This document shows, one piece after another, positions 2,767 to 41,112 of a stretch of 53,602 nucleotides of DNA. How positions within the stretch are numbered: the stretch's first letter is position 1; each line of letters opens with the position of its first letter. Below the pieces are notes generated by a model that was not told the DNA's origin, made no database searches, and saw only the letters and a program-made list of their open reading frames with translations. The stretch is from the NCBI GenBank assembly GCA_964448095.1, contig CAYUUT010000006.1, forward strand, positions 1 through 53,602, given 5' to 3'. Position numbers and translations under genes: made by a program. The DNA comes from an uncultured Candidatus Saccharibacteria bacterium (GTDB lineage Bacteria; Patescibacteriota; Saccharimonadia; Saccharimonadales; UBA10212).

Positions 2767-2796
2767 TCTTGACTATTATAACAGAGGTGGCCTAAT

Positions 2797-3837: not shown

Positions 3838-3855
3838 CTGTTACAGTTTAACAGA

Positions 3856-5836: not shown

Positions 5837-5840
5837 CAAT

Positions 5841-16432: not shown

Positions 16433-16892
16433 TAAGTTCGATTAGATAGGGCTGCTCTTTCTGCAAACGCGGTCGCAGGCTCATATCAAACCATTTGTTG
16501 GGCGTGCGCAGCATAAAACCAGCCGCCACATTGGGTTGGAGCCCAACTTGCAGCAACAGTGTCGGGTGGATATTTTGGCGCATCCAGCTAAGTATTTGCT
16601 CCAGGACTTTGGCTGGCGGTTCGCTACTAAAGCTTATGCGCAGCTGCGGCGCTGTTTTGAGCAGTCCTTCCAGCCGGGCTTTTAATTGCTGGCGCTGCGC
16701 TTCCTCCAGTAAATTAACCTGGTTGTCGCTGACCAACTGATTAAGCAAATTGCTGGGTCGCGGGGCTGGCAGAGCCGTACCGGCTGGCCGGCTTTTAGCG
16801 CCGGCGAAAAAATCATCTAGGCTATTTAGCTCACGCAGCAAACGCGACACGTCATAGCGGCTCACTAGGGTGATGGGGATTTTAAGCTCCAC
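16407..16892 (-). CDS. atpH: F1 delta/OSCP-like subunit
   Basis: C-terminal [22 protein letters not shown] matches the delta pattern; GTG start at 16892 chosen (ORF track starts at 16910). Confidence 0.7.
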
Positions 16893-28074: not shown

Positions 28075-28713
28075 ATGGCCGATTTTCCACCCTTTATGAA
28101 TGCCTACGGCAACGCAACGAAAATTTTAGATAAAATTAAAGAAGCTCAAACTCCAGATCGATTTTCGCAAGATTTCTTATCAACAGTTCTCGGTTTTTCC
28201 GGTGGCGGATCAAAAGCATTCATACCATTAGCAAAAAGAATTGGTTTGCTTTCATCTGATGGAGCGCCCACGGAATTATATAGACAATTTCGTAATCCGT
28301 CACAGTCTCAACAGGCAATGGCCCGAGCAATCAAAAAAGGATATCCTCAGCTCTATAGCCGTAATGAATTCGCTCATGCCTTAGAGAAAAAAGACCTTGA
28401 AGGCTTAGTAATGGAGGCTACAGGACTTAATAAAGGCTCCGCTACTTTAGGGGCAATTGTTAATACTTTCGAGGCTCTTAAGGCATTTGCTAACTTTGAA
28501 TTAGGAGAACCTGTTAGCGATATTGATAAGGCTGGCGATGAATCAGAAAAGCCACAAGATTCTCCTGTGCAAATTCCGTTGAAATTACCCGGCACAAGCA
28601 ATACCGGAGATCCTAAATTTTCATACAATATTTACCTCAATCTTCCGGACACTACTGACCCAGCAGTATTCAATGCTATATTCAAGTCTATCAGAGACAA
28701 CTTGCTACAATGA
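28075..28713 (+). CDS. DUF5343-like protein
   Basis: KILDKIKEAQTPDRFSQDFL...IPLAKRIGLLSSDGAPTELY matches my recollection of DUF5343; C-terminal YNIYLNLP; AGGAGG SD; AT-richer than flanks. Confidence 0.7.
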   Translation: MADFPPFMNAYGNATKILDKIKEAQTPDRFSQDFLSTVLGFSGGGSKAFIPLAKRIGLLSSDGAPTELYRQFRNPSQSQQAMARAIKKGYPQLYSRNEFAHALEKKDLEGLVMEATGLNKGSATLGAIVNTFEALKAFANFELGEPVSDIDKAGDESEKPQDSPVQIPLKLPGTSNTGDPKFSYNIYLNLPDTTDPAVFNAIFKSIRDNLLQ

Positions 28714-29291
28714 GTTCAACTGATAATCTAAAGCTATTCCATCTAAATAAAGCATTGCTAGAAGCTGATTTATCAACGGTTGAGAAGATTTATGATGTAA
28801 AGATTTTGCCCTCTAGGACAGTAATTGAGCGTAAGGACGAAACATTCTACCCCCAGTTCCCCGCTGCAATCAGGCAAAAAGCTAAAGAAATGGCCGCTCA
28901 CTACGAAGCGTTTTATTTACTTGAAAATTCAATAAGGGATCTAGTGAGCGAAGCATTGCTTTCTGCAGAGGGAGAAGACTGGTGGGACAAGACTGTGCCT
29001 AAAGAAGTCCAAGATAACGCCACAGTAAACGCAAAAAGAGAACGAGATGCAGGTGTTTCGCCGCGCTCCACAGAGCCTATTGACTATACGAATTTTGGTG
29101 AATTAAGCACAATCATACAAGCAAATTGGGAAAACTTTAGCGACCTATTTAATAGCAAGAGTGGACTAGTGAGCGTGCTAGCCAGATTGAACCTACTGAG
29201 AGGCCCGATTGCACATTGCGCAGCTCTAACGGAGGATGAAGTACTACGATTGCAACTTTCGTTACGAGACTGGTTCAGGCTTATGGAATAA
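28710..29291 (+). CDS. Swt1-like HEPN-domain protein
   Basis: EMAAHYEAFYLLENSIRDLV, DWW, YTNFGEL, HEPN R-x4-H motif RGPIAH; ATGA overlap with the upstream gene. Confidence 0.75.
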   Translation: MSSTDNLKLFHLNKALLEADLSTVEKIYDVKILPSRTVIERKDETFYPQFPAAIRQKAKEMAAHYEAFYLLENSIRDLVSEALLSAEGEDWWDKTVPKEVQDNATVNAKRERDAGVSPRSTEPIDYTNFGELSTIIQANWENFSDLFNSKSGLVSVLARLNLLRGPIAHCAALTEDEVLRLQLSLRDWFRLME

Positions 29292-29309
29292 ACCCGAAAT
29301 TTTGTTTTT

Positions 29310-29324
29310 GGGGATTTAAGCCCC
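29310..29324 (-). repeat. Cassette repeat R1
   Basis: aattttgtttttGGGGATTTAAGCCCCgg; supplies the TAA of 29316-29996. Confidence 0.85.
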
Positions 29325-29996
29325 GGCCTGTTTGGTTTTTAGCTGGCTGTAGTAGTGGTCGAGTGAAAGCAGCGCCACAGCGTTGAAGAAGTGCCAGACG
29401 GCGTGGCCGTTTATATAGTGAGAGCTGCTTGGGTCGCACCAAATCTTTTTGTAATCCAACCACCAGAATAAATAGCCAATCGCAAAAGCGGCAAAAGTCA
29501 GCCAAAAATATTTTAGGTTTAATTTGTCTTTGGCGGCAGCTTTTAGCTCCAGGTAAACCGCGATAATTAACAATATCGCGAAAAGCGGAATACCGATGTT
29601 AAAACTGCCAATTGTCCGAATTGTTGCCGTCAGCGCCAGCGGAATGCCAGCGCCAAAAATGAAAAACCCCAAGCTCTGATTCTTAGAAAGTTTGCGGTTT
29701 CGCAAGCCGGCGACAATAAGCAGCGAGGCCAGCAAGTACATTGACCCAAGATCGGCCAGCTGCCCCACAAATGTAAAACTAGCGTAATAGAAAAACGATG
29801 CCAAGCCCAAAATTATGGCGATTACGCCAAGATGTTTAGAATACGTGCGGTGTTTCTTGGCTAAAATATAGATTCCAGCCAAAGATATTAACAAAGAGGA
29901 GACGGCATTAGCGGGCTGGACAATCCAGCCGTTTAAATTGGATTCACAGTAGCGAATCGTCGGCTGCATCAAACCAAAAAACGGCGTCCGGTTCAT
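29316..29996 (-). CDS. Ceramidase-like (CREST superfamily) membrane protein
   Basis: YCESN, PANAVSS, ADLGSM, HAVWH; about 7 TM; the first Zn-ligand position reads SFFYY rather than SxxxH. Confidence 0.7.
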   Translation of the reverse strand: MNRTPFFGLMQPTIRYCESNLNGWIVQPANAVSSLLISLAGIYILAKKHRTYSKHLGVIAIILGLASFFYYASFTFVGQLADLGSMYLLASLLIVAGLRNRKLSKNQSLGFFIFGAGIPLALTATIRTIGSFNIGIPLFAILLIIAVYLELKAAAKDKLNLKYFWLTFAAFAIGYLFWWLDYKKIWCDPSSSHYINGHAVWHFFNAVALLSLDHYYSQLKTKQAGA

Positions 29997-30022
29997 AGTC
30001 CAATCATAACAAATTTTGTTTT

Positions 30023-30038
30023 GGGGAATTTAAGCCCC
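30023..30038 (-). repeat. Cassette repeat R2
   Basis: aaattttgttttGGGGAATTTAAGCCCCgg; supplies the TAA of 30030-30923. Confidence 0.85.
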
Positions 30039-30923
30039 GGCATTTGGTTTCATAACAAAGACTACGGCAGTACCGTTTATGGCTGCGACGTAGTCGGCTG
30101 GATAGTTGAGAGCTTTGGGTGAAGTTAGCTCATTCGTAACTTCCAGGAAGCTGTGGCTTTCAACATCAAAGCCCAGTCCTTCAAAAAATTTCTTGGCATC
30201 ATCTTCGTCTTTAAACAAGTTATTTTTGACGTCAACACCGGTTATTTGGGTTATTCTTTTCCGCCTTAACTCCATCACTTCATCTTCTTGGTATACCACC
30301 CGGGGCATCGATATGTCGGCCGTAATCCAGACTCCGCCATATTTGCGTAATAGCTCGCGCACGTTCTTTACGTATTGTTCCTTTTCCTCAAACGACAGAT
30401 ACCTAAGCAGGCCTTCGTTAACGACGGCGATAGGTTCACTGGTTTTAAAATGTCTGGCAGCGCGCTGTAAGTCTGTCAGCTCCAGCGCGCTGCCGTCTTC
30501 TATATGAAGATGCTCCGGCGACCGCAAAGCGCCTTTATTTTCCAGCGCTTTTATAATTTTTCTTTTATCGGCCATCATCAACGGCAAGTCTACTTCGACG
30601 TACTCTATTGTGCCGTCCGCGCTCATTTCCATGCCCCTAGTTGAAAGACCGGCGGCGATTTCCACAACTTGTTTGATGCCGGTTTGCTTAATCAGCTTGT
30701 TAATAAGTTTATGCCGGGCCTCAAAATGAGGTGCCATCTTGGTATCTTTCATTTCTTCCAAGAGGCCAGCTTTACTACCGGCCTGCCGAATGGTTTCCAG
30801 CTCTATAAACATTTCTTTGGAATAAGGGATATCTGAAAAAGTCCGCCCATAAGCCGTCAGCCAACCTGTGGGGATAATTCCATCATAAGCAGTTTTACCG
30901 GTTGGTGACTTAGCCTCGCTCAT
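30030..30923 (-). CDS. Class I SAM-dependent methyltransferase (LCM-like)
   Basis: QVVEIAAGLSTRG, YVEVDLP, VVNEGLLRYL. Confidence 0.85.
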   Translation of the reverse strand: MSEAKSPTGKTAYDGIIPTGWLTAYGRTFSDIPYSKEMFIELETIRQAGSKAGLLEEMKDTKMAPHFEARHKLINKLIKQTGIKQVVEIAAGLSTRGMEMSADGTIEYVEVDLPLMMADKRKIIKALENKGALRSPEHLHIEDGSALELTDLQRAARHFKTSEPIAVVNEGLLRYLSFEEKEQYVKNVRELLRKYGGVWITADISMPRVVYQEDEVMELRRKRITQITGVDVKNNLFKDEDDAKKFFEGLGFDVESHSFLEVTNELTSPKALNYPADYVAAINGTAVVFVMKPNAGA

Positions 30924-30964
30924 AGTCCATCAATAATACCAAACCAGGAAAAAATTTTGGGTTT

Positions 30965-30980
30965 GGGGGATTTAAGCCCC
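30965..30980 (-). repeat. Cassette repeat R3
   Basis: aaattttgggtttGGGGGATTTAAGCCCCggagcg. Confidence 0.85.
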
Positions 30981-30988
30981 GGAGCGGG

Positions 30989-31402
30989 CTACTTTACGAC
31001 TATGGTTCCGCGCATCGACGGATGGATACTGCAGTGATACTGGAATGAACCGGTTTTATTGAATGTAAAGCTGTAGGTTGAGCCAGGCTGTATGTCGCCG
31101 CTGGAGGGGCCGCCAACATTACTTAAATCATCAATTACTGTATGCGCCACGCTATCATTATTTGTCCAAGTGACTGTGGCGCCTTTGGCAACAGATATTT
31201 GGGAAGGCGTGAACATCATATTCTTAATATCTATGCTGCCAGAGGCCGCTGATTGGTTAGAACTTGATGCTGAACTATTGTTATTCGTACTATTTTGAGT
31301 GGAAGTGTTTGAGCTATTATTCGACTTGTTGTGATCATAAATAGCCCAGCCTCCTATCGCCAGAACCGCAACTACGATAATTGCTACCATTACTTTATTC
31401 AT
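30989..31402 (-). CDS. Cupredoxin (plastocyanin/amicyanin-like) with N-terminal anchor
   Basis: FTPSQISVAKGATVTWTNND, HTV, YHCSIHPSM (type-1 copper ligands H, C, H, M). Confidence 0.9.
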   Translation of the reverse strand: MNKVMVAIIVVAVLAIGGWAIYDHNKSNNSSNTSTQNSTNNNSSASSSNQSAASGSIDIKNMMFTPSQISVAKGATVTWTNNDSVAHTVIDDLSNVGGPSSGDIQPGSTYSFTFNKTGSFQYHCSIHPSMRGTIVVK

Positions 31403-31471
31403 TAAACTCTCCTCTTTACAGCTCTATTATAGGCCTTTATAAATTTTTGCGTGCCGAGAAGTTTATTTCTT

Positions 31472-31487
31472 GGGGGATTTAAGCCCC
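31472..31487 (-). repeat. Cassette repeat R4
   Basis: tttcttGGGGGATTTAAGCCCCggg. Confidence 0.85.
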
Positions 31488-31507
31488 GGGCTTTATGCTT
31501 ACAATAA

Positions 31508-31960
31508 CTAGGGCGTGGGACAATCAGGAACTCTAGGGTCTACGGCCACGTCGTTGCTAGCGTTACCATTCTCGAACGTATTTGCAGCCACGTAATCACC
31601 ACTATAGGGTTCTGGACTCTCTATGTGATACCACTTGCCCTCAGCACTAGGGGCGGCATCTACAGGGCCAGTAGCCAGACAGTCAACATCAACCTTATTG
31701 CCTTTTTCCAAGTGATGACCAACGCCAGAGGCGTTTACGTAATCCCTAAAGGTATTAGCTCCGAACTGCTCAGTTTCTTGGTGGTTAGAACCCTTTAATA
31801 ATACTTTCTGGCCAAGTTGAACATTTGGCGGCGCAGAAGTTTCGCTTTTTGTAGCACCGCCGCAACCTGCCCCTGCCAGAGCCAAAGCACCGCCTGAAAT
31901 TATAATTCCTCCGCGTATTCTCCAGTTAGTTTCAAAGAAAATTGAATTCATCTTTCTCAT
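31508..31960 (-). CDS. Putative lipoprotein with SH3-like cell-wall-binding domain
   Basis: AAGGAGG SD before ATG 31960; lipobox-like LAGAGC; VDVDCLATG...KWYHI...DYVAANTF. Confidence 0.6.
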   Translation of the reverse strand: MRKMNSIFFETNWRIRGGIIISGGALALAGAGCGGATKSETSAPPNVQLGQKVLLKGSNHQETEQFGANTFRDYVNASGVGHHLEKGNKVDVDCLATGPVDAAPSAEGKWYHIESPEPYSGDYVAANTFENGNASNDVAVDPRVPDCPTP

Positions 31961-32028
31961 ATGCGCCTCCTTTATCATGATTCTCTACCCCAGTAAGTAT
32001 ATTTGCAAGCATGAGCATTTTTGTTTTT

Positions 32029-32043
32029 GGGGGATTTAAGCCC
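32029..32043 (-). repeat. Cassette repeat R5
   Basis: tttttgtttttGGGGGATTTAAGCCCtc. Confidence 0.85.
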
Positions 32044-32124
32044 TCAATAATAAATTGGGTCGTGCGCCGGCCCGGTCTAGGAGATGCTCACTAGATCCGG
32101 GTCGGCGCGTCGCTCGCGACCTCC

Positions 32125-33222
32125 TTATGCATGTGACTGCGGCTTCTTGGGAGCCTCGCCCATCTCGCGCAGATGTCGGTAATGGGACCGGACCGCCGCC
32201 CAGAGCGTAGGCTGGCAGTGATACTGCAGCCCGTGCCTTTCGCACACCGCCCGCACCATCTTGTAGATTCGCGGGTAGTGCACGTGGGGAAGCCACGGGT
32301 AGAGGTGGTGCTCGATCTGGAAGTTCAGGCCGCCGAGTAACCACCTGAGAGCTCGGTTGTCGGGGCTGAAGTTCTGAGTCGTCTGAACCTCGTGTACCTT
32401 CCATAAGGTCTCGTTGGCCAGTTCCGGCGTCGTGAACATTGCCTCGTCGTTGCAGTGAGCCGCTTGGAAGGTCAGCGTCACCACGAAGCTGAACAAGAAC
32501 GACAGGCCGAGAAAGACCAACAGAACCATTGCCACTCCGTGTAGCGACCAGTGCAGCCACATCGGCAGGGCCAGAGCCCAACCGAAAAACAGCAGCTTGC
32601 CGGTCAACAGATGGACGAATCCGCGGTAGCCGCGCCTTTTTAGCTCGAAGCAACCAATGCGTCCGTTTTTGTAGGACACAAAGTCGCCCCAAACTTGCCA
32701 GCGCAGCGTCACGAAGCCGTACACCAGCCACAGGTACAGGTGCTGCCACCGATACCAGGGCCGGTATTCCTGGGTTGAGGCCAGACGGGCGAAAGGCGGT
32801 GCGTTGATGTCCTCGTCCATCTGGTCGATGTTTGTCCAGGTGTGATGAGCCACGTTGTGGCTGACTTGCCACCCGGGACTGCTACCACCCAGAAACTCGA
32901 GCGAGAAGCCCGCCAGGTTGTTAACGAAGGCATGCCGGCTGAAAGCCCCGTGGTTTCCATCGTGCATGACGTTGAATTCCACGGCGATTAGCGCCAGCAC
33001 CACGTTGAGGCCAAGAAGCACAACCTCCCACCAGTTGCTGGCGAAGAGGATCAGGGCCGGGCAAGCGATAGCCGCCCAGAGGACGACAACCGCCGCTTTG
33101 CGGTGGAGCTCCCTGTAGCCGTTTTGCTTTACGCCTTCCTGGCTGTAGTAGTTGTCGAAACCTTGCTTGAGGTCATCCGAGAAGGCGCCGCCTCCCCGAA
33201 AGTTAACCTTAGGCCTAGGCAT
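32125..33222 (-). CDS. Acyl-CoA/linoleoyl-CoA-type fatty acid desaturase, GC-rich
   Basis: His boxes HDGNHG, HNVAHH and QIEHHLYP; AGGAGG SD. Confidence 0.92.
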   Translation of the reverse strand: MPRPKVNFRGGGAFSDDLKQGFDNYYSQEGVKQNGYRELHRKAAVVVLWAAIACPALILFASNWWEVVLLGLNVVLALIAVEFNVMHDGNHGAFSRHAFVNNLAGFSLEFLGGSSPGWQVSHNVAHHTWTNIDQMDEDINAPPFARLASTQEYRPWYRWQHLYLWLVYGFVTLRWQVWGDFVSYKNGRIGCFELKRRGYRGFVHLLTGKLLFFGWALALPMWLHWSLHGVAMVLLVFLGLSFLFSFVVTLTFQAAHCNDEAMFTTPELANETLWKVHEVQTTQNFSPDNRALRWLLGGLNFQIEHHLYPWLPHVHYPRIYKMVRAVCERHGLQYHCQPTLWAAVRSHYRHLREMGEAPKKPQSHA

Positions 33223-33334
33223 GACACCTCCTCATTGTTGTTGTGCATAGGATGTCAAAGAGCTTCTACAAGCATATCAAAGAAAGGTTAGAAGACAATG
33301 TTTTACTACATTTATAAAGGTTTTAGAGATTTTT

Positions 33335-33351
33335 GAGAGATTTAAGCCCCC
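33335..33351 (-). repeat. Cassette repeat R6
   Basis: tttttGAGAGATTTAAGCCCCCg; supplies the TAA of 33342-33884. Confidence 0.75.
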
Positions 33352-33884
33352 GCCGGCGTTAGCCTAAGGCTATCGGGTCTTATAGCTGTAATCGGGCAGA
33401 AGACATCTGGCGGTGTCGGGCTACTGTCTATGGGCGGGGAGTCTGGGGTCGAATCCGTATCGGAGTAGACCAAACAAATTTCTGGCACGTCTATAACTAA
33501 GCCTTTGTCTGTCTGTTGACGCGTGGTAAGAAGGCCAAAACGTTTAAACCTTCCATGGCCAGCTTGGCCTTCTGTTCCTGGCTGGATTTCGCAAACAGCA
33601 GTCTCTGTGGCTATCGGCCAAAAACCTAGCGTGGCCGTATCAATTCTGGGTAAAACCAAATATGCCCTGTCAAAAACCAAATCGACCAGGTCGCCCCTGT
33701 TCTGCTCATACTCTTGGTCCAGCAGCTGAGCAAAGCCGTGAATCCAATACGGATCATATTCGACTAATAAATGCCTGCGCACTTGCTCAAACTTCGATTC
33801 AGGCATTTGTAATGAACGCTCTGTTCTTTCGGTGGCCATAATTGGCAATACTTTACCATAATTAACCATTTGCCGCAAATACAA
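33342..33884 (-). CDS. Hypothetical protein
   Basis: Fills the interval between R6 and R7; start codon uncertain; ends PAGA. Confidence 0.55.
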   Translation of the reverse strand: MYLRQMVNYGKVLPIMATERTERSLQMPESKFEQVRRHLLVEYDPYWIHGFAQLLDQEYEQNRGDLVDLVFDRAYLVLPRIDTATLGFWPIATETAVCEIQPGTEGQAGHGRFKRFGLLTTRQQTDKGLVIDVPEICLVYSDTDSTPDSPPIDSSPTPPDVFCPITAIRPDSLRLTPAGA

Positions 33885-33903
33885 TAAGAGGGCTTTTGTT
33901 TTT

Positions 33904-33917
33904 GGGGAATTTAAGTC
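33904..33917 (-). repeat. Cassette repeat R7
   Basis: ttttgtttttGGGGAATTTAAGtc. Confidence 0.75.
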
Positions 33918-33940
33918 TTGAGTGGGTCGTTTATAAAGTT

Positions 33941-33971
33941 GGGAGATGCGCAGGGTTGCAGCGCACCTCCC
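33941..33971. terminator. GC-rich hairpin after the small-ORF operon
   Basis: gggagatgcgc pairs with gcgcacctccc. Confidence 0.55.
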
Positions 33972-33989
33972 AGGTGTTGTTGGAAGCTT

Positions 33990-34190
33990 CTACTTGAGCT
34001 CGAGGTCGGCACCGCTCCAGGCGTAGACCTCCGCGCCGTCGTCTAGGCGGATCCTGCAGCGGCCGTCGCGGTTGACCTCATCGATCACCACGCCGTGCTT
34101 CCCTTGATGGGCGCTCAGGTCACTGCTGCCGTTGGCAGAGGTGTTGCCAACGACAATGACACGGTCGTTGAGTCTAATGTAGCGTTCCAC
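33990..34190 (-). CDS. Small KOW/SH3-like protein, 66 aa
   Basis: GGAAGGAG SD with GTG start; DRVIVVG...GKHGVV...CRIRLDDG. Confidence 0.55.
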   Translation of the reverse strand: MERYIRLNDRVIVVGNTSANGSSDLSAHQGKHGVVIDEVNRDGRCRIRLDDGAEVYAWSGADLELK

Positions 34191-34224
34191 GATTCTCCTT
34201 CCCAGCCTCGGCCGAGCTTGAGTA

Positions 34225-34341
34225 CTAGAACAGGTGTTTCAGAAGGCCTCCGGCTTCCCAGCCCCCGATGCATGCGGCTACGACGATGCAAGCTGCCGCC
34301 GCTGTCGAGACAATGAGAAGCGGAATATCTGAAATACGCAT
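34225..34341 (-). CDS. Small hydrophobic protein, 38 aa
   Basis: Not in the ORF track. GGGAG SD; MRISDIPLLIVSTAAAACIVVAACIGGWEAGGLLKHLF. Confidence 0.45.
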   Translation of the reverse strand: MRISDIPLLIVSTAAAACIVVAACIGGWEAGGLLKHLF

Positions 34342-34357
34342 CTCTTCTCCCTTCGAC

Positions 34358-34567
34358 TCAGAGGCGCGAATAGCGCCGGAGGTTGAGGACGTTGGTCAGC
34401 ATCCAGAACGCTTCGAACACGATTGCGGGCATCCAGCCCCAGTAGTGGGCGAAGACCACAATTCCGATCGGCTGGATGATGAGCTCGACGAGCTTACGCG
34501 CCCAGAGTCTTCTCAGACCCTTGGGTATGTCGTAGTTCTGAAGCAAAGCTTCCTCCTCAAAAGACAA
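34358..34567 (-). CDS. Small membrane protein, 69 aa
   Basis: TTG start; GC-rich third positions; hydrophobic core. Confidence 0.45.
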   Translation of the reverse strand: MSFEEEALLQNYDIPKGLRRLWARKLVELIIQPIGIVVFAHYWGWMPAIVFEAFWMLTNVLNLRRYSRL

Positions 34568-34669
34568 GTGCTAACCTCGGCATCAGCCGAGACTAACTCA
34601 AGGCTGATATTGTCGAAATTCAGCTATATTTTACAATAAAACACTCAAAAAAACAAGAAGAGGAAGTTT

Positions 34670-34686
34670 GGGGGGATTTAAGCTCC
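34670..34686 (-). repeat. Cassette repeat R8
   Basis: gtttGGGGGGATTTAAGCTCCggg. Confidence 0.8.
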
Positions 34687-34689
34687 GGG

Positions 34690-35550
34690 TTATAGCAGTA
34701 ACAAACATAGGCCGGCCGTAACGCCGATTATGCCGGCGGCTTTGCGATATGTAAGTTCGTCCCGGAAGAATAAGACCGCCAGGATAGTTACCAAAGAAAT
34801 TGATCCGGCGTTGATAGCATTCACATAGCCAACGTTTGGCGCCAGTTTTATAGCCTCGAAATTACCTAGGTTAAAAAGCGTGGAGAAGACGCCGGTAGCC
34901 AGCAATAGCCAGCCTTCTTGGGCCGTCAGTTTCTTTATTGAGCCTAAGCGGACCTTGTCGGCCACAATAATGCAGAGCGTGACAATCGCATAAATATAAA
35001 TAAGGAAGGCCATGGTATCCACGCCGTGGTTAAAGAGATACTTGGACGACAGCGACAGAAATCCCCAGGCAAAAAACGCGGCGAATGACAATAAAACCCA
35101 TCTGTTGCTGGAAACTTTCTTGGCAGCCCTAGGAGTGATGGTAATAAGCGCCGAAAAACCCACAATGACCAAGATAGCTATAGCTTTACGCCAAGTAAGG
35201 TCGGCATTCAGAAAAATTACCGCAACGATGGTTGTGAATAGCACGTAACTTTTGGAAAGCATCAAGCTGTAGCCCGGATTTGGAGCGATACTTATGGCTT
35301 TGAGTGAAACTTTATTGCCGCCATAGGAAAAAATGACGGCTGTCACCAAAATGACCAACGCTTGCCACCAGGAAATATGCAAGCTGTGCTGGCCACCCAC
35401 GCCAATGACTAGATACGCCGCTAAAGGAAGAGCAAACATCGCTAAGTTAGTCAGATGTATGGGCGTCTTGAGCAGCGAGGATTTACGGACACTCAAATAC
35501 ATCGCCACCGATGCGAAGAACATCATCAGACTATAGCCAACCCAAGACAT
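34690..35550 (-). CDS. EamA/DMT-family transporter
   Basis: About 10 TM in two repeats; APNPGYS and APNVGYV. Confidence 0.85.
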   Translation of the reverse strand: MSWVGYSLMMFFASVAMYLSVRKSSLLKTPIHLTNLAMFALPLAAYLVIGVGGQHSLHISWWQALVILVTAVIFSYGGNKVSLKAISIAPNPGYSLMLSKSYVLFTTIVAVIFLNADLTWRKAIAILVIVGFSALITITPRAAKKVSSNRWVLLSFAAFFAWGFLSLSSKYLFNHGVDTMAFLIYIYAIVTLCIIVADKVRLGSIKKLTAQEGWLLLATGVFSTLFNLGNFEAIKLAPNVGYVNAINAGSISLVTILAVLFFRDELTYRKAAGIIGVTAGLCLLLL

Positions 35551-35576
35551 AAGCTAATCATAGCAAATGACCCAGG

Positions 35577-35591
35577 AATTTTGGGTTTGGG
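35577..35591 (-). repeat. Degenerate cassette repeat R9 (T-rich arm only)
   Basis: aattttgggtttggg matches the left arm of R3; the ATTTAAG core is absent. Confidence 0.4.
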
Positions 35592-35612
35592 CTGGTTGTT
35601 TGCCGGCTAAGT

Positions 35613-36188
35613 TTAGGAGAACTTTATGATGGCTTCTAGCACAATGGCTAGAGCGATTAGACACCAGATAAATATATCCAGACCACTGGCTACCATGCGG
35701 TCTGCTATTTTTTGGTAACGCGCGCTAAGATGTAGGTTTTTATAATTCAATCTAAACCAAGCTCCACTAATCGCCAGCACTCCTCCGTAACAGAAAACGC
35801 AGTAAATGCACAAACTGCCGATGTTAAAAATGCTTTGCCAGAAGTACCAAAAACCAAACCCGATGAAAAATAGGGCCATAGCCTGATAGACCAGGCGCAG
35901 CTTGGCGTTAATCTGGGCGCCCGTCCAGCCGATTAGACCAGCAGAGAACATAATCGCGAAAAAACTAATGCAAAGCATCGAGTTAGGGAAGCCAAAAACC
36001 GAACTTTGATGAGCGTTGAGAATATTAGAGCAATTAAAAACCGAGCTTAGGTTACAGCTTAGTACCGAGTGGGCATTTTTGAGCAGTGTTATCTTTTCCA
36101 GCATCTGCAGAAAAGATGCGGTAAAGCCAATAGCGGCTCCGAAAGTTAGTATTTTATAGAGTGTTTTTGTAGAGGTGAGTTGTCTCAT
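35613..36188 (-). CDS. Vitamin K epoxide reductase (VKOR) family protein
   Basis: CNLSSVFNCSNIL, FGFPNS, CIYC redox motif. Confidence 0.9.
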   Translation of the reverse strand: MRQLTSTKTLYKILTFGAAIGFTASFLQMLEKITLLKNAHSVLSCNLSSVFNCSNILNAHQSSVFGFPNSMLCISFFAIMFSAGLIGWTGAQINAKLRLVYQAMALFFIGFGFWYFWQSIFNIGSLCIYCVFCYGGVLAISGAWFRLNYKNLHLSARYQKIADRMVASGLDIFIWCLIALAIVLEAIIKFS

Positions 36189-36238
36189 AAGCCGTATAGT
36201 GTTTTTCTTGAACCGTACTGTGATTTGAGTCGCAGTTA

Positions 36239-36257
36239 ATTTTGGGAATTTATATCC
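36239..36257 (-). repeat. Degenerate cassette repeat R10
   Basis: aattttGGGAATTTAtatcc. Confidence 0.45.
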
Positions 36258-36814
36258 TAGAGCTTTAGGTTGAAGGCTCCGCCAATTTGCCCGGGTTTTA
36301 ATATTTGCAATGGCTGGCTCTTTGAAGGATCCAAAGCCACTCCTTCAACATCCGCCGAGGCTTTCAGTGTGTACGTATAACTGTTTGAGTTGAATACCTC
36401 GCTAAGTGACTGCAGCTCTTTAAGACCGTGGGCCACTGCTTGACCGGCGCTGCCCTCAGGCAGTTGAGATTCTACTGCCGCCCCGGCGTTCATGACAATG
36501 CTCAGCTGCAAGGTTTGGGACTGCTGCGGCGCCAGGCTAAAAACTTGGGTGTTTTCAGCTCGGGCAACTGTTTGGAAAGTGGTGGCATTAACTGGGTCTA
36601 TGCCTGACTTCGTTGGTTGTTGAAAGTTGAGGCTTTGAGATTGCGCAATTATCTCAACAGTAACCTTATTAATTTGTACTTGAGTGTCTTCGGCTGTCAC
36701 AGTTACGCTGACCGGCAGCGATGCGTCTTGCATAGACACGCTGGCAGGAGCCTGCATTTCAACCTTCACCCCACCGTGAGTTAAATTTTTCTTAAAGCTA
36801 CTAAATATACCCAT
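36257..36814 (-). CDS. Spo0M/arrestin-like beta-sandwich protein
   Basis: MGIFSSFKKNLTHGGVKVEM..., YTLKASADVEGVALDP; TATAAT-6-ATG. Confidence 0.55.
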   Translation of the reverse strand: MGIFSSFKKNLTHGGVKVEMQAPASVSMQDASLPVSVTVTAEDTQVQINKVTVEIIAQSQSLNFQQPTKSGIDPVNATTFQTVARAENTQVFSLAPQQSQTLQLSIVMNAGAAVESQLPEGSAGQAVAHGLKELQSLSEVFNSNSYTYTLKASADVEGVALDPSKSQPLQILKPGQIGGAFNLKL

Positions 36815-36851
36815 AGCATGATTATACGCCCACCGGGGGAAATTTTGGGTT

Positions 36852-36866
36852 GGGGAGATTTAAGAC
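36852..36866 (-). repeat. Cassette repeat R11
   Basis: aaattttgggttGGGGAGATTTAAGac. Confidence 0.75.
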
Positions 36867-36872
36867 GTCTAC

Positions 36873-37070
36873 TTATTTTTTCTTTGGGTGGAACAGGTGG
36901 TAGAAATTTAGGTCGTAGCCCCAGCCAAAGGCGCGCGGGGTCCATATACGCGGGTCATCCGGGTTCCAAAGCCGCGAGCGGTACCTTGCCCAGGTTGGCC
37001 AGCGCCAGTCATATGGCACTCCCCAAAATTTCCCCACCCTATCTTGCTTGTTATTAGGAGCAGTACTCAT
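36873..37070 (-). CDS. DUF5808-like small protein
   Basis: GVPYDWR, LWNPDDPRIWTPRAFGWGYDLNF. Confidence 0.75.
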   Translation of the reverse strand: MSTAPNNKQDRVGKFWGVPYDWRWPTWARYRSRLWNPDDPRIWTPRAFGWGYDLNFYHLFHPKKK

Positions 37071-37100
37071 AACTGAAGTATACGCTCACACAGAGGATAG

Positions 37101-37130
37101 AATTTTGTTTAACGGGATTTAGGTCCCGGG
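37101..37130 (-). repeat. Cassette repeat R12
   Basis: aattttgtttaacGGGATTTAGGTCCCggg. Confidence 0.65.
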
Positions 37131-37147
37131 TGGCCTTTGCTTAAATA

Positions 37148-37191
37148 TGTGACGGTTATTACGCGTAATAAATGTTGTGACTATTAACACA
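37148..37191. promoter_or_regulatory. Pair of CRP/FNR-type boxes, copy A
   Basis: TGTGA-cggtta-TTACG and TGTGA-ctatta-ACACA, starts 28 bp apart. Confidence 0.55.
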
Positions 37192-37335
37192 GACATTAGA
37201 AACCAGGACTAATATACTTATGCTTAATTAGTCGATGGGAATAGGTGCACTATTTGAAGGAGATCATTACTTAAGAGTTGGTCTTTGTACAAAATCGCTC
37301 TAAGGGAAAACAACATAAAGAGAAAGGTACTAATC

Positions 37336-37530
37336 ATGTCTCACACATTCAGCAATAAGAAGTTCAAAGTCCATTACCGAGAATATCTAGCCAATACTAA
37401 CGAACCACGGGAGACTCTCAACGACATAATAGCAGACGAAGAGCTTGACGTTGGTTTAATAAGTAATGCTTATTACGAAAGAAGGAAATTACGGCGTGTA
37501 GCCGAGAGACTGAGACAAGCCCCTATATAG
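37336..37530 (+). CDS. Small basic protein, 64 aa, paralog of 39760-39957
   Basis: AGAAAGG SD with ATG at 37336; YREYLAN..EP...YY.RRKLR...ERLR is shared with the paralog. Confidence 0.7.
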   Translation: MSHTFSNKKFKVHYREYLANTNEPRETLNDIIADEELDVGLISNAYYERRKLRRVAERLRQAPI

Positions 37531-37552
37531 GCGGATGTGTTCGATACATCGC

Positions 37553-37585
37553 AAAAAGAGCCCCTTTGTGAGGAGGCTCTTTTTT
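37553..37585. terminator. Bidirectional intrinsic terminator
   Basis: aaaaagagcc...ggctcttttt. Confidence 0.75.
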
Positions 37586-37598
37586 AAATATAGTCTTT

Positions 37599-37614
37599 GG
37601 GGAATCCAAGCCCC
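37599..37614 (-). repeat. Cassette repeat R13
   Basis: ctttGGGGAATCCAAGCCCCggagcg; same right flank as R3. Confidence 0.7.
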
Positions 37615-37729
37615 GGAGCGAATCTGGTATGATAAATTAAATGGCAACTTTCAAAGGCTTCTAGCCTACTCCTTACTTCAGCCAAAAGTCCGGCCTTGGT
37701 CGGCAATATTTTAATGTTAAGGAGTAAAT

Positions 37730-38263
37730 ATGAAACTTGGTAAATTAGATTTTGTTCCCGTGCAAGATAGGCTAGATTTGGTCGCTGAGCCAGTTGGCGA
37801 AGCGATCAAGGAAAAAGCGTTAAGCGATGTTTTAGTAGCCAAGATTAAGCCCGACCTGGCTGACACGGCCGCCTTTTGCGAATATTACAATATTGGCCTG
37901 GAAGTATCGGCCAATTGCATTGTGGTTGAAGCGAAGCGAGCGGATAAAACTTGGTACGCGGCCTGTGTGATATTGGCGACTTCAAGAGCCGATGTTAATG
38001 GCGTGATACGTCGCCATCTGGGCGCCAAAAAAATATCTTTTGCCCCGATGGATAGAGCCACATCAATCACGTCGATGGAATACGGCGGAATTACACCTAT
38101 AGGTCTGCCCTTGGATTGGCCTATTTTGGTGGATAGCGCAGTAGCCAAAACTGCTCACGCAGTAATTGGCAGCGGCTTACGGAAGTCTAAACTGTTGGTT
38201 CCTGGTAGTTCGTTCCACAAGTTGCCCAACGCGACAGTGATGGATATCACCCAATCCAGCTAG
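37730..38263 (+). CDS. YbaK/aminoacyl-tRNA deacylase-family protein
   Basis: SANCIVV, KKISFAP, MEYGGITPIGLP, IGSGLRKSKL. Confidence 0.88.
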   Translation: MKLGKLDFVPVQDRLDLVAEPVGEAIKEKALSDVLVAKIKPDLADTAAFCEYYNIGLEVSANCIVVEAKRADKTWYAACVILATSRADVNGVIRRHLGAKKISFAPMDRATSITSMEYGGITPIGLPLDWPILVDSAVAKTAHAVIGSGLRKSKLLVPGSSFHKLPNATVMDITQSS

Positions 38264-38278
38264 CCAGAGTATAGGGAA

Positions 38279-38296
38279 TACTTAACTTGTTAAGTA
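38279..38296. repeat. 18-bp palindrome, copy 3 (intergenic)
   Basis: gggaatacttaac-tt-gttaagtattccc, 13-bp arms spanning 38274-38301. Confidence 0.8.
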
Positions 38297-38326
38297 TTCC
38301 CTGCTCCCCCGGGAGAGTTTGTTTTT

Positions 38327-38339
38327 GGGGATTTAAGGC
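38327..38339 (-). repeat. Cassette repeat R14
   Basis: tttgtttttGGGGATTTAAGgc. Confidence 0.75.
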
Positions 38340-38373
38340 TGAACTCCTAGTTTGCTATGATTTTAGTCTAAGT

Positions 38374-38844
38374 ATGGATAAGTCTGATTTTCTGAATAAG
38401 TATTTGCCCTTGTTCAGCATTCATTTTCACGATAACGTTTTTTCAAAAGACAACAGCATCAAAGTCATTGAGCAAAAACTGCCATTTAAAGAATTGCTGG
38501 AGTTTTATATTCTGCGAACAGTGAAAAACGGCTTGCCGGATACACGGGGCATAGAAGAAAGGGAGAATGACCTCAACTCAAAATTAATCACCCTTTATGA
38601 AGCCCGGCAGAATCCCAAGAAATGGGGCTTGGAGTCGAAGGGCAGAATTATACCCTCGCTTAAAGATATCCGGCCAATACCGGTAGCTGTTGACCCTGAT
38701 AGCGGAAATTGTTTAATCCTAGACTCCAATCATCTGCTAACTAACTTGAACTGCCCATCGGATACCGTAATACCACTCGCGCTAATTGTCGGGCCAAATC
38801 TTGAGGCGCTCGGACCAGATTTTATTATCCTCAGCCGGCAATAG
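38374..38844 (+). CDS. Hypothetical protein
   Basis: ATG 38374 after TATGAT (the ORF track extends across repeat R14); no family recognised. Confidence 0.55.
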   Translation: MDKSDFLNKYLPLFSIHFHDNVFSKDNSIKVIEQKLPFKELLEFYILRTVKNGLPDTRGIEERENDLNSKLITLYEARQNPKKWGLESKGRIIPSLKDIRPIPVAVDPDSGNCLILDSNHLLTNLNCPSDTVIPLALIVGPNLEALGPDFIILSRQ

Positions 38845-38845
38845 T

Positions 38846-38861
38846 TTTTGGAGTTTAAGTC
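38846..38861 (-). repeat. Cassette repeat R15
   Basis: ttttGGAGTTTAAGtc, immediately after the stop codon of the CRP gene. Confidence 0.55.
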
Positions 38862-39539
38862 TTAGCCCAGAGCTGCTTGTAGTTTGTCGACATCAATGAC
38901 AGTAAATAGATGGTCGGTTTGACCCATTAGTCCTTCTTCGAAAAGTAATTCTAAAGCCCGGCTGGCCGTCTCTCGGGATAGATTGATAGAGTCGGCGATT
39001 TCTTGATGAGTTATAGGCGCATTAATAAGAATTTCTTTACCACGCCTTTCGCCAAACCTCTCAGCTAAACATATTGATTCCGCGATAACTCTTTCGCGGG
39101 CGGATCGATATTCAAGGGTTTGGATCCGCTGCGTGTAAATACTAATGATGTTGACGGTCTGGTTCAGTATCTCTTGAGAAAGCCAGGTGTTCCTACCCAG
39201 CGAGGAACGCAATTTATCTTTACTGGCCCTTAGCATTTTGACGTCGCTCATTGCTTGGTAGAACATGCCGGTGGCGTGAGCTCCGTCTAAAGCCCAAGGT
39301 AGCGGGATGAACTCGCCAGCTTTGTGGATTAACAAAAGGTTGTTCTGACCATTGCGTGAAATTGTGTATGCCTTAACAAATCCGGATTTAATTAGATAGA
39401 CACCTTCTGGCTCCGCGTAGCCTTGGATAATCACTTCGTCTTTGGAAAAGTTCATTAAATGGCCGTCGCTAAAGTGGGCGACTATGCTATCGTCATCGGG
39501 TTTGCGTGTCGGCACGGCTGCCAGTGCTCTTATGGGCAT
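38862..39539 (-). CDS. CRP/FNR-family transcriptional regulator
   Basis: YLIKSGFVKAY, GEFI, HTH ITHQEIADSINLSRETASRAL. ATG 39539 with TACACT-6-ATG is preferred over the ORF-track start at 39770. Confidence 0.9.
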   Translation of the reverse strand: MPIRALAAVPTRKPDDDSIVAHFSDGHLMNFSKDEVIIQGYAEPEGVYLIKSGFVKAYTISRNGQNNLLLIHKAGEFIPLPWALDGAHATGMFYQAMSDVKMLRASKDKLRSSLGRNTWLSQEILNQTVNIISIYTQRIQTLEYRSARERVIAESICLAERFGERRGKEILINAPITHQEIADSINLSRETASRALELLFEEGLMGQTDHLFTVIDVDKLQAALG

Positions 39540-39572
39540 AGCTTTAGTGTATAGGTATTTGCATTTTAAAAA

Positions 39573-39616
39573 CGTGACACTTATCACATTTGATAAATAT
39601 TGTGATGCTTGACACA
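39573..39616. promoter_or_regulatory. Pair of CRP/FNR-type boxes, copy B
   Basis: aaaCGTGA-cactta-TCACAttt and TGTGA-tgcttg-ACACA, 28 bp apart, between the divergent CRP gene and the small ORF. Confidence 0.7.
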
Positions 39617-39759
39617 GACTTTTAAAGAATGGGCTAATGCACTTACGCTTAAGCTTGTCGACAGGATTTGAGGGGTTATTCGAAGGAGAGTCTTGCTTAA
39701 ACTGCCGGGTATTTTTGCAAAGCGTTCTATAAATACAGTGCCTAAAAGAAAGCAGGATT

Positions 39760-39957
39760 ATGTCACACACATCCAGTAGTAAGGGGCGCTACCGAGAATA
39801 TTTAGCCAATTTCAAAGAACCAGAGGATGTCATCCACGATGGAGTCGAGCGCGGTAGAGCCGAGGCGGAACTTGTTGCCGGCTTAATAGAAAATATATAT
39901 TACCAAAGAAGGAAGTTGCGGCACGCAGTCGAGAGGCTGAGGTACTACTCTCTGTAG
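39760..39957 (+). CDS. Small basic protein, 65 aa, paralog of 37336-37530
   Basis: MSHT...YREYLANFKEPED...YYQRRKLRHAVERLR. Confidence 0.7.
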   Translation: MSHTSSSKGRYREYLANFKEPEDVIHDGVERGRAEAELVAGLIENIYYQRRKLRHAVERLRYYSL

Positions 39958-40007: not shown

Positions 40008-40411
40008 TGGTGGAGTTGGAGGGAATTGCACCCTCGTCCGATTGGTAACATGCTTGGTGACTACAGGTTTAGGCTGTTTGAAATTTCTTAAGCTCAACCA
40101 TAAAAACAGTCAAAAAAGGGAAAGCTAAAGTCCATTAATCTTAGTAAGCACGGGCGGACAAACCCGGCAACTTAAGCAATCAGAAAATATAGCGCTTTTC
40201 GTCCTATCTGATGTCAGACGATTAGCGGTAGCCTATAAAATTAGGCTACGTTGAAGGCCAATTGGCGAGGAGCAAACAAGTTTGCAACCGCTTCTTTGAC
40301 ACTTACAGAAAGATTTTTTACATCTATCTTGGTGCACCGGATAACGTTCAGTGCGACCCGACCTGCCACTTCAGCTTGTTAAAGTCCATTCGTCGAATAA
40401 AATTCAACCCC
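40008..40411 (-). ncRNA. ssrA: tmRNA
   Basis: 5' GGGGTTGAATTTTATTCGAC; 3' GGACGAGGGTGCAATTCCCTCCAACTCCACCA; tag ORF 40300-40241 VKEAVANLFAPRQLAFNVA. Confidence 0.92.
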
Positions 40412-40454: not shown

Positions 40455-40934
40455 CTAGTCGGTGCCAAAGATTTTTTGGTTGCGGCGGGTTTCGGCGCTG
40501 AATGCGGTTAGCAGACGCTCGGTCATTTTGATAAATTCTTTTACTTCTGTGCTGCTTCCTACCAGTAGCTTGAGAAGTTCTGTCTGTTGGTCAGCCAGCA
40601 GCTTTTCGGCTTGGTCTTTTTTGTGACTGCCCTTGGCGGTAAGTTTAACGTCACGCTGGCGGCCATCTTTTTTATTCTTAGTGATGGTCACTAGGCCATC
40701 ATCTTTCATGACTTGCAGCTGGCGGCTAACGTTGGCTTCGGTTTGGCGCAGCTTGATTGAAACCACGCGTTGGGACTTAGTAGAGTCTTTATCGAGCACT
40801 CCCATGATGCGTGCATGGCTAAGCCCTACCCCAAGTTTGACCATCAAAAGGTCGTCGGCTATCTGTTGTAAAACAAACGACAGTTGGTGCAGGGGAGTGG
40901 GTGAGTGGACGGGAGCTAAGTCATTGTCGGCCAT
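40455..40934 (-). CDS. MarR-family transcriptional regulator
   Basis: SQRVVSIKLRQTEANVSRQLQVMKDDGLV, DGRQRDVKLTAKG; ATG 40934 after TTGACT-18-TACAGT-6. Confidence 0.88.
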   Translation of the reverse strand: MADNDLAPVHSPTPLHQLSFVLQQIADDLLMVKLGVGLSHARIMGVLDKDSTKSQRVVSIKLRQTEANVSRQLQVMKDDGLVTITKNKKDGRQRDVKLTAKGSHKKDQAEKLLADQQTELLKLLVGSSTEVKEFIKMTERLLTAFSAETRRNQKIFGTD

Positions 40935-40955
40935 GATTTTACTGTAGTCCAAAAA

Positions 40956-40973
40956 TACTTAACAAGTCAAGTA
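40956..40973. repeat. 18-bp palindrome, copy 4 (overlaps the marR -35 box)
   Basis: tacttaacaagtcaagta, reverse complement of copy 1; arms aaaaatactt/aagtattttt. Confidence 0.8.
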
Positions 40974-41112
40974 TTTTTTGGGAAAGGGAAGGGCAGTCAA
41001 CGGCTAACGGGCACAACTTAGTTGGCACTATCCTCGGCTATACGGATGTAGATGAAATATTTTACATCCTCCTGCCTGCGGGTGTGCCTACTAAATAGCG
41101 CCCTGCGCCGCC

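Follow-up and report, generated by a model that had tools for sequence, protein, structure and literature searches.

T4-type phages carry promoter early stem-loops (PeSLs), intergenic elements in which a stem-loop (often GGGG...CCCC) is combined with an AT-rich tract and a sigma-70-type promoter (Arbiol et al. 2010, PMC2839356; Comeau et al. 2014, PMC4122927). Hyperplastic regions are rich in PeSLs, which lie behind most orphan-gene indels between phages RB49 and phi1 and release mini-circles (PMC2839356, PMC4122927). The stem-loops also terminate transcription (PMC2839356). Here, we describe an array of gene cassettes, bounded by copies of a short repeat, in the chromosome of an uncultured Candidatus Saccharibacteria bacterium. 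The array lies upstream of the gene typA, in a stretch of 53,602 nucleotides (nt) that we refer to as the window (contig CAYUUT010000006.1, assembly GCA_964448095.1, positions 1 to 53,602). Each repeat belongs to a module that combines a quasi-palindrome with an A-tract; when unique copies of the window and its relatives are pooled, about half also have a promoter, placed at a fixed distance. We propose that this composite module drives cassette shuffling by homologous recombination and is a cellular counterpart of the PeSL. We put the probability of this reading at roughly 55%.

Saccharibacteria and other bacteria of the Candidate Phyla Radiation are obligate epibionts, with genomes of ~1 Mb and very few recognised mobile elements. 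In the literature searched, we found no description of the locus, or of its motif, in Saccharibacteria. As far as we found, a comparable mechanism has been described only in T4-type phages, and PeSLs are the sole close analogue.

A repeat array at one locus

The window contains 15 copies of a ~31-nt motif, all within a 9.6-kb stretch at 29.3-38.9 kb and none elsewhere. Every one of the 15 has the same orientation, and consecutive copies are between 259 and 1306 bp apart. The pattern GGGGATTTAAGCCCC, allowing up to three mismatches, matches the window 15 times. Shuffled sequences gave an expectation of 2.1 matches and none of 100 shuffles reached 15. A repeat finder placed 10-11 same-strand copies into families. 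We also built a weight matrix from 14 copies. The copies score between 19 and 42 bits, although scoring those same copies is circular. The best site in the remaining 44 kb reaches 20.2 bits (position 16880, intragenic) and all others are at or below 16. Across 287 kb of sequence that is either unrelated or flanking, counting both strands, a set that includes loci fetched via a 19-mer match, just four sites exceed 19 bits.

A preliminary description of the window had listed about 15 same-orientation copies, with no clear copy outside the interval between typA and ssrA, the transfer-messenger RNA (tmRNA) gene. A plus-strand match to the repeat is present at each of the 15 listed positions, and the scan of the other 44 kb finds nothing comparable. 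Some copies are incomplete. The copy near 35590 is partial, with the A-tract and promoter kept and the core gone, and the left arm is degenerate in copies at 36249, 36859, 38332, and 38854.

We then looked beyond the window. An exact 19-mer of the motif had no real match in 185,579 GTDB species genomes; the eight matches obtained were single, due to chance, and in unrelated phyla. IMG/VR was scanned twice for the motif and no viral contig matched. In metagenomes of the Joint Genome Institute (JGI), the same 19-mer identified ten contigs with real modules, mostly with at least two copies each, and only array contigs were matched. Nine of the ten belong to a sample series that also contains the window organism. 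Two other metagenome matches, L012 and L017, were chance matches within open reading frames (ORFs) and were discarded. Note that L-numbers denote the contigs or loci compared with the window, and that these relatives are mainly metagenome contigs. Look-ups of proteins identical to those of the typA, Crp-type, and ceramidase-like genes returned matches from the same strain only. Among TypA homologues, the closest to bear a name are assigned to Candidatus Saccharibacteria.

Dispersal of the kind typical of repetitive extragenic palindromes (REP), bacterial interspersed mosaic elements (BIME), or miniature inverted-repeat transposable elements (MITE) was not seen, there being no copy outside the locus in 44 kb of the window or ~150 kb of relatives. 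Nor does the repeat consensus have the terminal inverted repeats expected for a MITE. A dispersed repeat was rejected because the 19-mer matches GTDB species genomes by chance only and nothing in IMG/VR. We rejected a viral origin since neither scan of IMG/VR gave a match and the flanks are Saccharibacteria housekeeping genes. Restriction to one locus also led us to drop, by inspection, a DNA-uptake sequence. We conclude that these soil Saccharibacteria, which form a clade, carry the repeat at a single hypervariable locus upstream of typA, where it recurs between unrelated accessory genes.

Anatomy of the module

The gene direction of the array is the minus strand of the window, and we read the module on that strand. 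Its consensus is CCGGGGC-TTAAAT-YCCCC, then AAAA(C/A)CAAAAT. The core is the 16-bp quasi-palindrome GGGGC-TTAAAT-YCCCC and the A-tract comes next. The hairpin and A-rich tail had been recognised in the preliminary description, but the unit is longer and the promoter was missed: in many copies, conservation reaches ~60 nt, extending beyond the hairpin into promoter sequence. Counts given here are for 44 unique copies, with window and relatives pooled. In class A (11-12 unique copies) a -10 hexamer, TATAAT or TGnTATGAT, begins 26 nt past the YCCCC arm, with an ATG 6-7 nt later. In class B (8-10 copies) a -35-type box, TGCTYRTGCTTGCA, begins exactly 11 nt past the same arm. Most cassettes are not promoterless and have their own -10 box, 6-7 nt before the ATG.

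The ATGCTTGCA box is also found upstream of the DUF5343 gene, and leaderless starts of the form TATAAT, 6-8 nt, ATG are a common start type across the whole window. Hence, both module extensions look like ordinary promoters of this genome. From these sequence likenesses, we infer that the module promoters are active. TATAAT-like boxes also precede the ATG of many housekeeping genes, including alaS, by 6-9 nt, and these genes lack a Shine-Dalgarno sequence, so that leaderless mRNAs seem to be the norm in this Saccharibacterium. A sigma-54 promoter was dropped, by inspection, because the GG/GC spacing is wrong.

The right arm and A-tract are far better conserved than the left arm, which is GGGGC in most copies and AAGAC, or another sequence, in several. 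The conserved sequence of the tail led us to drop poly(A)-like retro-copy tails, again by inspection. Modules also have an array-specific flavour, being mostly TAAATC in the window and mostly TAAATT in L021, L022, and L014. This fits concerted evolution, with homogenisation by repeated exchange. Upstream ORFs all stop 0-28 nt from the core, and many ORF-to-ORF gaps (~55 nt, from TAA to ATG) consist wholly of module.

The layout GGGGC-N6-YCCCC raises the prospect of a regulatory role. Sites for CRP-family proteins have a 5-6-5 geometry, which the core equals, and a gene for a Crp/FNR-family regulator (38862..39770, minus strand, 44% GC) is directly upstream of the first module. The encoded protein is a candidate binder of the core. 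The array might then be a clustered regulon, in which the quasi-palindrome is the operator or activator site of a transcription factor, repeated since all cassettes are regulated together, and recombination a by-product. Consistent with this, the core is at a fixed distance upstream of promoters, in two spacing classes, and class A promoters have no -35 box, as is often so for activator-dependent promoters. Two reversed genes also have a -10 box at an equal distance (29 nt) on the opposite strand. However, conservation of the left half-site is poor, and more distant arrays lack it. The core is centred near -47 in class A and near -64 in class B, and this gap of 16-17 bp does not correspond to an integral number of helical turns. 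Three copies are between convergent genes, and the complete array formed by L015 and L021 has no Crp homologue at either flank. Finally, regulation alone leaves cassette turnover, described below, unexplained. We consider a clustered regulon distinctly unlikely. Note that an operator is compatible with, rather than exclusive of, our preferred model of shuffling by homologous recombination.

Cassette turnover among relatives

As in the window, the array is upstream of typA in L013 (typA 93.6% identical in nucleotide sequence) and L021 (85%). L015 and L021 jointly cover a whole array with 11 modules, bounded by a pilin-like gene pair at one end and typA at the other. Among more distant relatives (TypA 85-88% identical in amino-acid sequence) the presence of modules is graded. 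L041 has clear modules, all four matches being upstream of typA. L024 has a few, L029 and L037 have degenerate ones, and modules are essentially absent from L027 and L030. Most modules of L041, L029, and L037 are without the GGGG left arm, with the A-tract and promoter retained. The gradation indicates that the stretch upstream of typA is an old variable region of the clade. Modules with the sharp palindrome are characteristic of the lineage to which the window belongs. In L027, upstream of typA and with no array (at ~9930), a perfect GGGGCTTAAATACCCC hairpin lies ~45 nt upstream of the typA -10 box.

Close relatives differ by whole cassettes. Compared to L015, L019 has one extra 711-bp cassette, encoding a peptide deformylase, and both flanks are 99.5-99.8% identical. 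The two alignments overlap in a 22-nt core string, CCGGGGCTTAAATCCCCCAAAA. Similarly, two cassettes (X and Y) are neighbours in L021 and L015, and have seven cassettes (6.9 kb) between them in L014. Here, identity is 100% on the Y side and 96% on the X side. Between the window and L013, the end of the LCM methyltransferase cassette matches over 121 nt without mismatch. Divergence begins 2 nt ahead of CCGGGG, and the neighbouring cassettes are replaced. L011 and L021 have in common an upstream cassette, a degenerate core, and the A-tract, over 116 nt with zero mismatches. Past the A-tract, identity is ~85% in the promoter part and there is only noise beyond the ATG. Cassette families also occur in differing orders across the window, L011, L013, L014, L029, and L041. 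Recurring families are the ceramidase-like protein, the 180-aa orphan, cupin, SnoaL, nucleotidyltransferase, and a 164-aa orphan.

Assembly chimeras are an unlikely source of these junctions, since the identical stretch is shorter than the assembly k-mers (k141, k127) and independent samples give the same junctions. Briefly, the arrangement of the window recurs in L010, L039, and L040, that of L015 in L021, and that of L014 in L022 and L018, all being independent assemblies. We conclude that cassette gain, loss, and reordering occur at the module, with variable breakpoints. The modular cassette array of the preliminary description is thus borne out; relatives show the opposite of identical gene order with no breakpoints at the repeat.

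Contigs of the clade tend to end at or near the array (L009, L015, L013, and L014). For instance, L015 begins inside a module and L009 ends 430 bp upstream of typA. Such contig ends are expected where strains differ in cassette content. In L014, the products of a 3-kb cassette (1810-4691) are a 385-aa orphan and a protein of 571 aa that has sigma-70 region 4 and LuxR-type helix-turn-helix domains.

RNA structure and termination

Fold z-scores for four representative modules are between -0.6 and +1.3 and so no better than shuffled. On this basis, we rejected a structured RNA, or an attC-like fold. R boxes (RYYYAAC...GTTRRRY), sought in the module consensus, were not found. With the 4-bp stem, these results uphold the earlier view that the repeat is not an attC site; that it is not a clustered regularly interspaced short palindromic repeat (CRISPR) is likewise supported. 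An intrinsic terminator was rejected because the stem is 4 bp long and the A-tract follows on the gene strand, the T-tract preceding it on the other. A simple terminator scan flags three copies, on the plus strand, and only when G-T pairs are allowed. The repeat itself is therefore no canonical terminator, as had been stated, but such terminators do exist inside the array (37545-37576), and another follows ssrA.

The hairpin and A-rich tail could still be an RNA 3' element that acts as a terminator, processing site, or stabiliser of cassette mRNA. The core is 0-28 nt past every upstream stop codon. Copies are present in tandem and convergent gaps, and are absent from the divergent gap 34190-34268, as would suit a 3' element. 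PeSL stem-loops do terminate transcription (PMC2839356). However, orientation of the module is unchanged even where the adjacent gene is reversed, and canonical terminators are used where needed. In addition to the short stem, missing U-tract, and folding energy noted above, the arms have no compensatory changes and are mismatched in many copies. Rfam returned nothing above the gathering score, the sole match overlapping the motif being a sub-threshold frameshift element (E=0.027). An RNA 3' element is the least likely of the readings considered, and very improbable.

Proposed mechanism of cassette exchange

Breakpoints are 1-5 nt left of the core, right after the A-tract, or within the core (the 22-nt identical stretch). 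This is as expected from recombination between two homologous copies, where one parent contributes sequence up to the repeat and the other the sequence after it. The recombinase hunt consisted of Pfam scans of ~60 ORFs, from the window and relatives, together with precomputed Pfam tables for eight loci. Neither the window ORFs nor the large ORFs of related contigs yielded a recombinase domain. The precomputed tables list no recombinase gene up to 10 kb from typA, or from the array, in any of eight relatives. An IntI tyrosine recombinase beside the array was not found in the window or the relatives scanned. Circular contigs were looked for and none was seen.

The preliminary description had interpreted the repeats as integron-like recombination sites, with a recombinase encoded elsewhere. 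The modular array, and the lack of a recombinase in the window, both stand. A dedicated site-specific recombinase is unsupported, and breakpoints do not share one fixed position, being at the left edge, at the right edge, or anywhere within the 22-nt stretch. Because breakpoints vary, promoters are fused at fixed spacing, and no recombinase gene was found, recombination of a regulatory module fits better than an integron-type mechanism.

We envisage exchange as follows. Each cassette gene would come with its own expression signal, by way of the module. Every gene has 30-60 nt of near-identical sequence on either side, on which homologous recombination would act. Within one chromosome, recombination or replication slippage between two copies would delete a cassette and perhaps release a circle. 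Recombination with incoming DNA of relatives, for which natural transformation is a likely source, would insert or swap cassettes. Repeated exchange would homogenise modules within the array, and the palindrome could bind a protein or serve as a weak attenuator.

Alternatively, the core, CCGGGGC-TTAAAT-YCCCCAA, may be the att site of a trans-encoded tyrosine recombinase (possibly Xer-type) or HUH enzyme. Cassettes would then excise as circles with one hybrid site and re-insert at any copy, with the promoter as cargo. Several observations favour such an att site and, at the same time, weigh against homologous recombination. First, the core is laid out as 7-6-7, like the core site of a tyrosine recombinase. 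Short inverted arms surround an asymmetric 6-bp spacer, which would provide directionality, and all copies are direct. Second, at ~15 of 38 unique junctions the core TAA is the stop codon of the upstream ORF, fused in frame with a ...Gly-Ala-stop ending. Third, AAGAC recurs as a second left-arm type in several unrelated copies. The last two features hint at more precise joining. Fourth, homologous recombination leaves unexplained how a new foreign gene first gains flanking modules. An att site would also suit the pairing of a highly conserved right arm with a variable left arm, as in hybrid or XerD-biased sites. The same is true of the exact one-cassette indel with its crossover inside the 22-nt core, the homogeneity of sites per array, like species-specific attC, and the heterogeneous composition of cassettes.

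Other evidence points away from an att site. Besides the failure to find a recombinase, apparent breakpoints are at both module edges and not in the spacer only. In L041, L029, and L037, it is the GGGG left arm that is mostly missing and the A-tract and promoter that persist. Known simple sites have arms of 11-13 bp, far longer than the 4-7 bp of the module. An attC-like fold is absent and, by inspection, the core is unlike dif. We regard an att site of this type as rather unlikely. A site-specific system of the integron type is unproven and, on balance, disfavoured. It is also unlikely that the core is the attachment site of a novel trans-encoded system, combining single-gene capture, in-frame stop joining, and a ready-made leaderless promoter. 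Such a system would be integron-like in function, with its own promoter, and unrelated to IntI/attC.

Further points count against our preferred model of module shuffling by homologous recombination. For RecA-dependent exchange within a cell, 30-60 nt is a short length. T4 possesses a hyper-recombination system of its own, and it is not obvious that a Saccharibacterium does. The three copies between convergent genes have no promoter downstream, so that a promoter role cannot cover every copy. The weak hairpin, with its 4-bp stem and no U-tract, leaves the terminator half of the PeSL analogy unsupported.

Individual copies and cassettes

ORF calls and Pfam scans define 14 cassettes, spanning 29316..38844, with the gene content given in the preliminary description. 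We number the module copies, all on the minus strand, from the typA end. Copy 1 (29295..29326) is the last in the gene direction. It has a full core, GGGGCTTAAATCCCC, and A-tract, is between the convergent ceramidase-like and HEPN genes, and has no promoter after it. The ceramidase-like ORF (29316-29996, minus) stops on its core TAA. Copy 2 (29994..30040) has a short promoter extension, TGTTATGAT, followed by 6 nt and ATG 29996 of the ceramidase-like gene. The LCM methyltransferase ORF (30030-30923, minus) stops on the core TAA of this copy. In copy 3 (30921..30982), of class A, the core and A-tract precede TGGTATTAT and ATG 30923 of the LCM methyltransferase gene. Copy 4 (31458..31489) has downstream the cupredoxin gene (30989-31402, minus), with its own TATAAT and a Shine-Dalgarno leader. 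Next is a 156-aa orphan (31508-31978, minus). In copy 5 (32001..32046), of class B, the core and A-tract are followed directly by TGCTCATGCTTGCA, the -35-type box.

The fatty-acid desaturase gene (32125-33222, minus) is overlapped, in another frame, by a frame of 278-281 codons (32036-32872, minus) that ends on a core TAA. This frame is probably a by-product of the high GC content at third codon positions (GC3) of the desaturase gene (78%). Host-to-epibiont transfer of this GC-rich gene was considered and set aside, the best homologues being just 55% identical and of mixed taxonomy. Copy 6 (33321..33352) has a degenerate right arm, and the 180-aa orphan ORF (33342-33884, minus) stops on its core TAA. 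Copy 7 (33890..33921) has AAGAC in place of GGGGC. A divergent pair (33990-34190, minus; 34268-34639, plus) occupies one cassette. Copy 8 (34657..34688) is between the convergent EamA gene (34690-35550, minus) and a 123-aa ORF (plus). Partial copy 9 (35548..35606) consists of the A-tract CCCAAACCCAAAATT and class A promoter TGCTATGAT, then 6 nt and ATG 35550 of EamA, with the core missing.

Beyond the VKOR gene (35613-36188, minus), degenerate copy 10 (36229..36260) reads GGATATAAATTCCCAAAA. The next gene is Spo0M-like, though the match is weak (36257-36814, minus). Copy 11 (36812..36870), of class A, has ACGTC as its left arm, and GGGCGTATAAT is followed by 6 nt and ATG 36814. Copy 12 (37068..37129), also of class A, has TATACT, 6 nt, and ATG 37070 of the DUF5808 gene. 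Pfam scans place that gene at 36873-37070 on the minus strand, as first described.

Three to four cassettes are reversed, including those with a 64-aa ORF (37337-37530, plus), YbaK (37730-38263, plus), and a 156-aa orphan (38374-38844, plus). Copy 13 (37585..37616) has the loop TTGGAT, and copy 14 (38312..38343) has a degenerate left arm. On the plus strand, both have TATGAT 29 nt past GGGG, upstream of reversed YbaK and of the reversed gene 38374-38844, respectively. Copy 15 (38834..38865), the first in the gene direction, is degenerate and lies 7 nt past the stop of the Crp/FNR-type gene.

The 64-aa ORF has a 65-aa paralogue at 39760-39957 (plus). Both start MSHT..YREYLAN, and their DNA is 71-82% identical over ~140 nt. 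The first is in a reversed cassette with the canonical terminator 37545-37576, and the second is between the Crp-type gene and ssrA. A Pfam scan of the two gave no match.

Cassette GC content varies from 39 to 57% (gene GC3 31-81%), compared to 52% in the flanks. Such variation around the 52% of the core genome points to mixed origins. The variable composition, and the occurrence of both gene orientations, agree with the preliminary description.

Flanking genes

The typA/bipA gene (26089..27912, minus) anchors the downstream end of the array and is conserved there in all relatives examined. Beside it is a variable slot, which in the window is filled by a DUF5343 and HEPN_Swt1 gene pair (28075..29291, plus, 42% GC). 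This slot holds a low-GC, defence-like unit that differs by strain. In L021, the unit is GmrSD_N plus HEPN_RiboL-PSP (4930-6500) and, in L013, a 272-aa orphan (1009-1827).

At the other end, ssrA (40008..40411, minus) has a 3' end unrelated to the repeat. Island accretion at ssrA, in the manner of tycheposons and with repeats as copies of the tmRNA 3' end, was rejected because that end, GAGGGTGCAATTCCCTCCAACTCCACCA, shows no similarity. Relatives carry arrays without ssrA alongside. The linkage to ssrA is incidental: in relatives, typA is the conserved anchor and the far flank differs. The tmRNA tag peptide predicted by ARAGORN, VKNLSVSVKEAVANLFAPRQLAFNVA, is unusually long and the resume codon may be miscalled.

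In L019 (4038-5103) and L024 (7759-8830), the upstream flank of the array is a conserved divergent gene pair, encoding a 108-112-aa protein with a prepilin-like N-terminus and a secreted protein of ~250 aa. The window has the Crp-type gene, ssrA, and a MarR gene instead. Just upstream of the MarR gene (40455-40952) is an inverted repeat, AATACTTAAC-NN-(G/T)TNAAGTATT, at 40954-40975. A second copy, at 38277-38298, is between the YbaK cassette and the reversed gene 38374-38844. By its sequence and placement, the inverted repeat looks like a putative MarR operator common to MarR and a cassette gene.

Significance and comparison with described systems

The locus is ~2% of the 529.7-kb source contig and is given over to exchangeable, expression-ready single-gene units. 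These encode envelope enzymes, small metabolic enzymes, and defence-type genes. Since content differs between strains that are 99.5-99.8% identical, the locus is a concentrated source of strain-level diversity. It also explains metagenome assembly breaks beside typA in this clade. If our reading is correct, modular shuffling of the PeSL type extends from phages to a cellular chromosome, and there is a second route to cassette arrays, independent of integrons. The module is a candidate native promoter part, and the locus a candidate neutral landing site, for new Saccharibacteria genetic systems.

Like PeSLs, the module unites a stem-loop of a G-run and a C-run, an AT-rich tract, and a sigma-70-type promoter, the last known here by sequence only. 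Both are dense in a hyperplastic region of small orphan genes, and both fall into subclasses according to where the stem-loop lies with respect to the promoter. In each case, genes are inserted, deleted, or replaced at the motif between close relatives. Variable breakpoints are also common to the two, having been mapped for PeSL mini-circles (PMC2839356). The differences are equally clear. PeSLs were defined in phages by experiment, whereas the promoters of the module are predicted from sequence and the release of circles is a proposal. The module is in a Saccharibacteria chromosome rather than a phage, no IMG/VR contig having the motif, and is at one locus per genome where PeSLs are at several. 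Its stem is weak and without a U-tract, making terminator function doubtful; its promoters are mostly leaderless; and there is no sequence similarity to PeSLs. By analogy, the array would work like a PeSL array. We do not file it as a PeSL member.

Integrons, and clusters of attC sites lacking integron integrases (CALINs), resemble the array in other ways. Cassettes mostly have one gene, are of mixed composition, and are nearly all in one orientation. The repeat is at the 3' end of the gene, often overlapping the stop codon, with array-specific variants, and cassette content changes fast between close relatives. Unlike an integron, the array is without IntI and its breakpoints are not at a fixed point. 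attC sites are hairpins of 55-140 nt with RYYYAAC/GTTRRRY ends, compared to a repeat of 31-60 nt with a 4-bp stem. Integron cassettes rely on Pc, whereas those of the array carry their own promoters.

In Acinetobacter, Xer-dependent pdif modules, or integrative mobile elements exploiting Xer (IMEX), have pdif sites of 28 bp (11-6-11) in alternating orientation. As in the array, modules have one or two genes, sites are short with one arm conserved, and the recombinase is encoded elsewhere. The array differs in having arms of 4-7 bp, all copies direct and, by inspection, no resemblance to dif.

Short intergenic repeats with promoter or terminator signals have also been described in halovirus HF2 (PMC8707807). 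Neisseria Correia elements and REP/BIME sequences are alike in this respect. These repeats are dispersed over a genome or phage and the module is confined to one locus. MITEs have terminal inverted repeats or a target duplication, and REP sequences a RAYT partner; the module has neither terminal inverted repeats nor a duplication. Finally, unlike the HF2, Correia, and REP/BIME repeats, the module bounds exchangeable genes.

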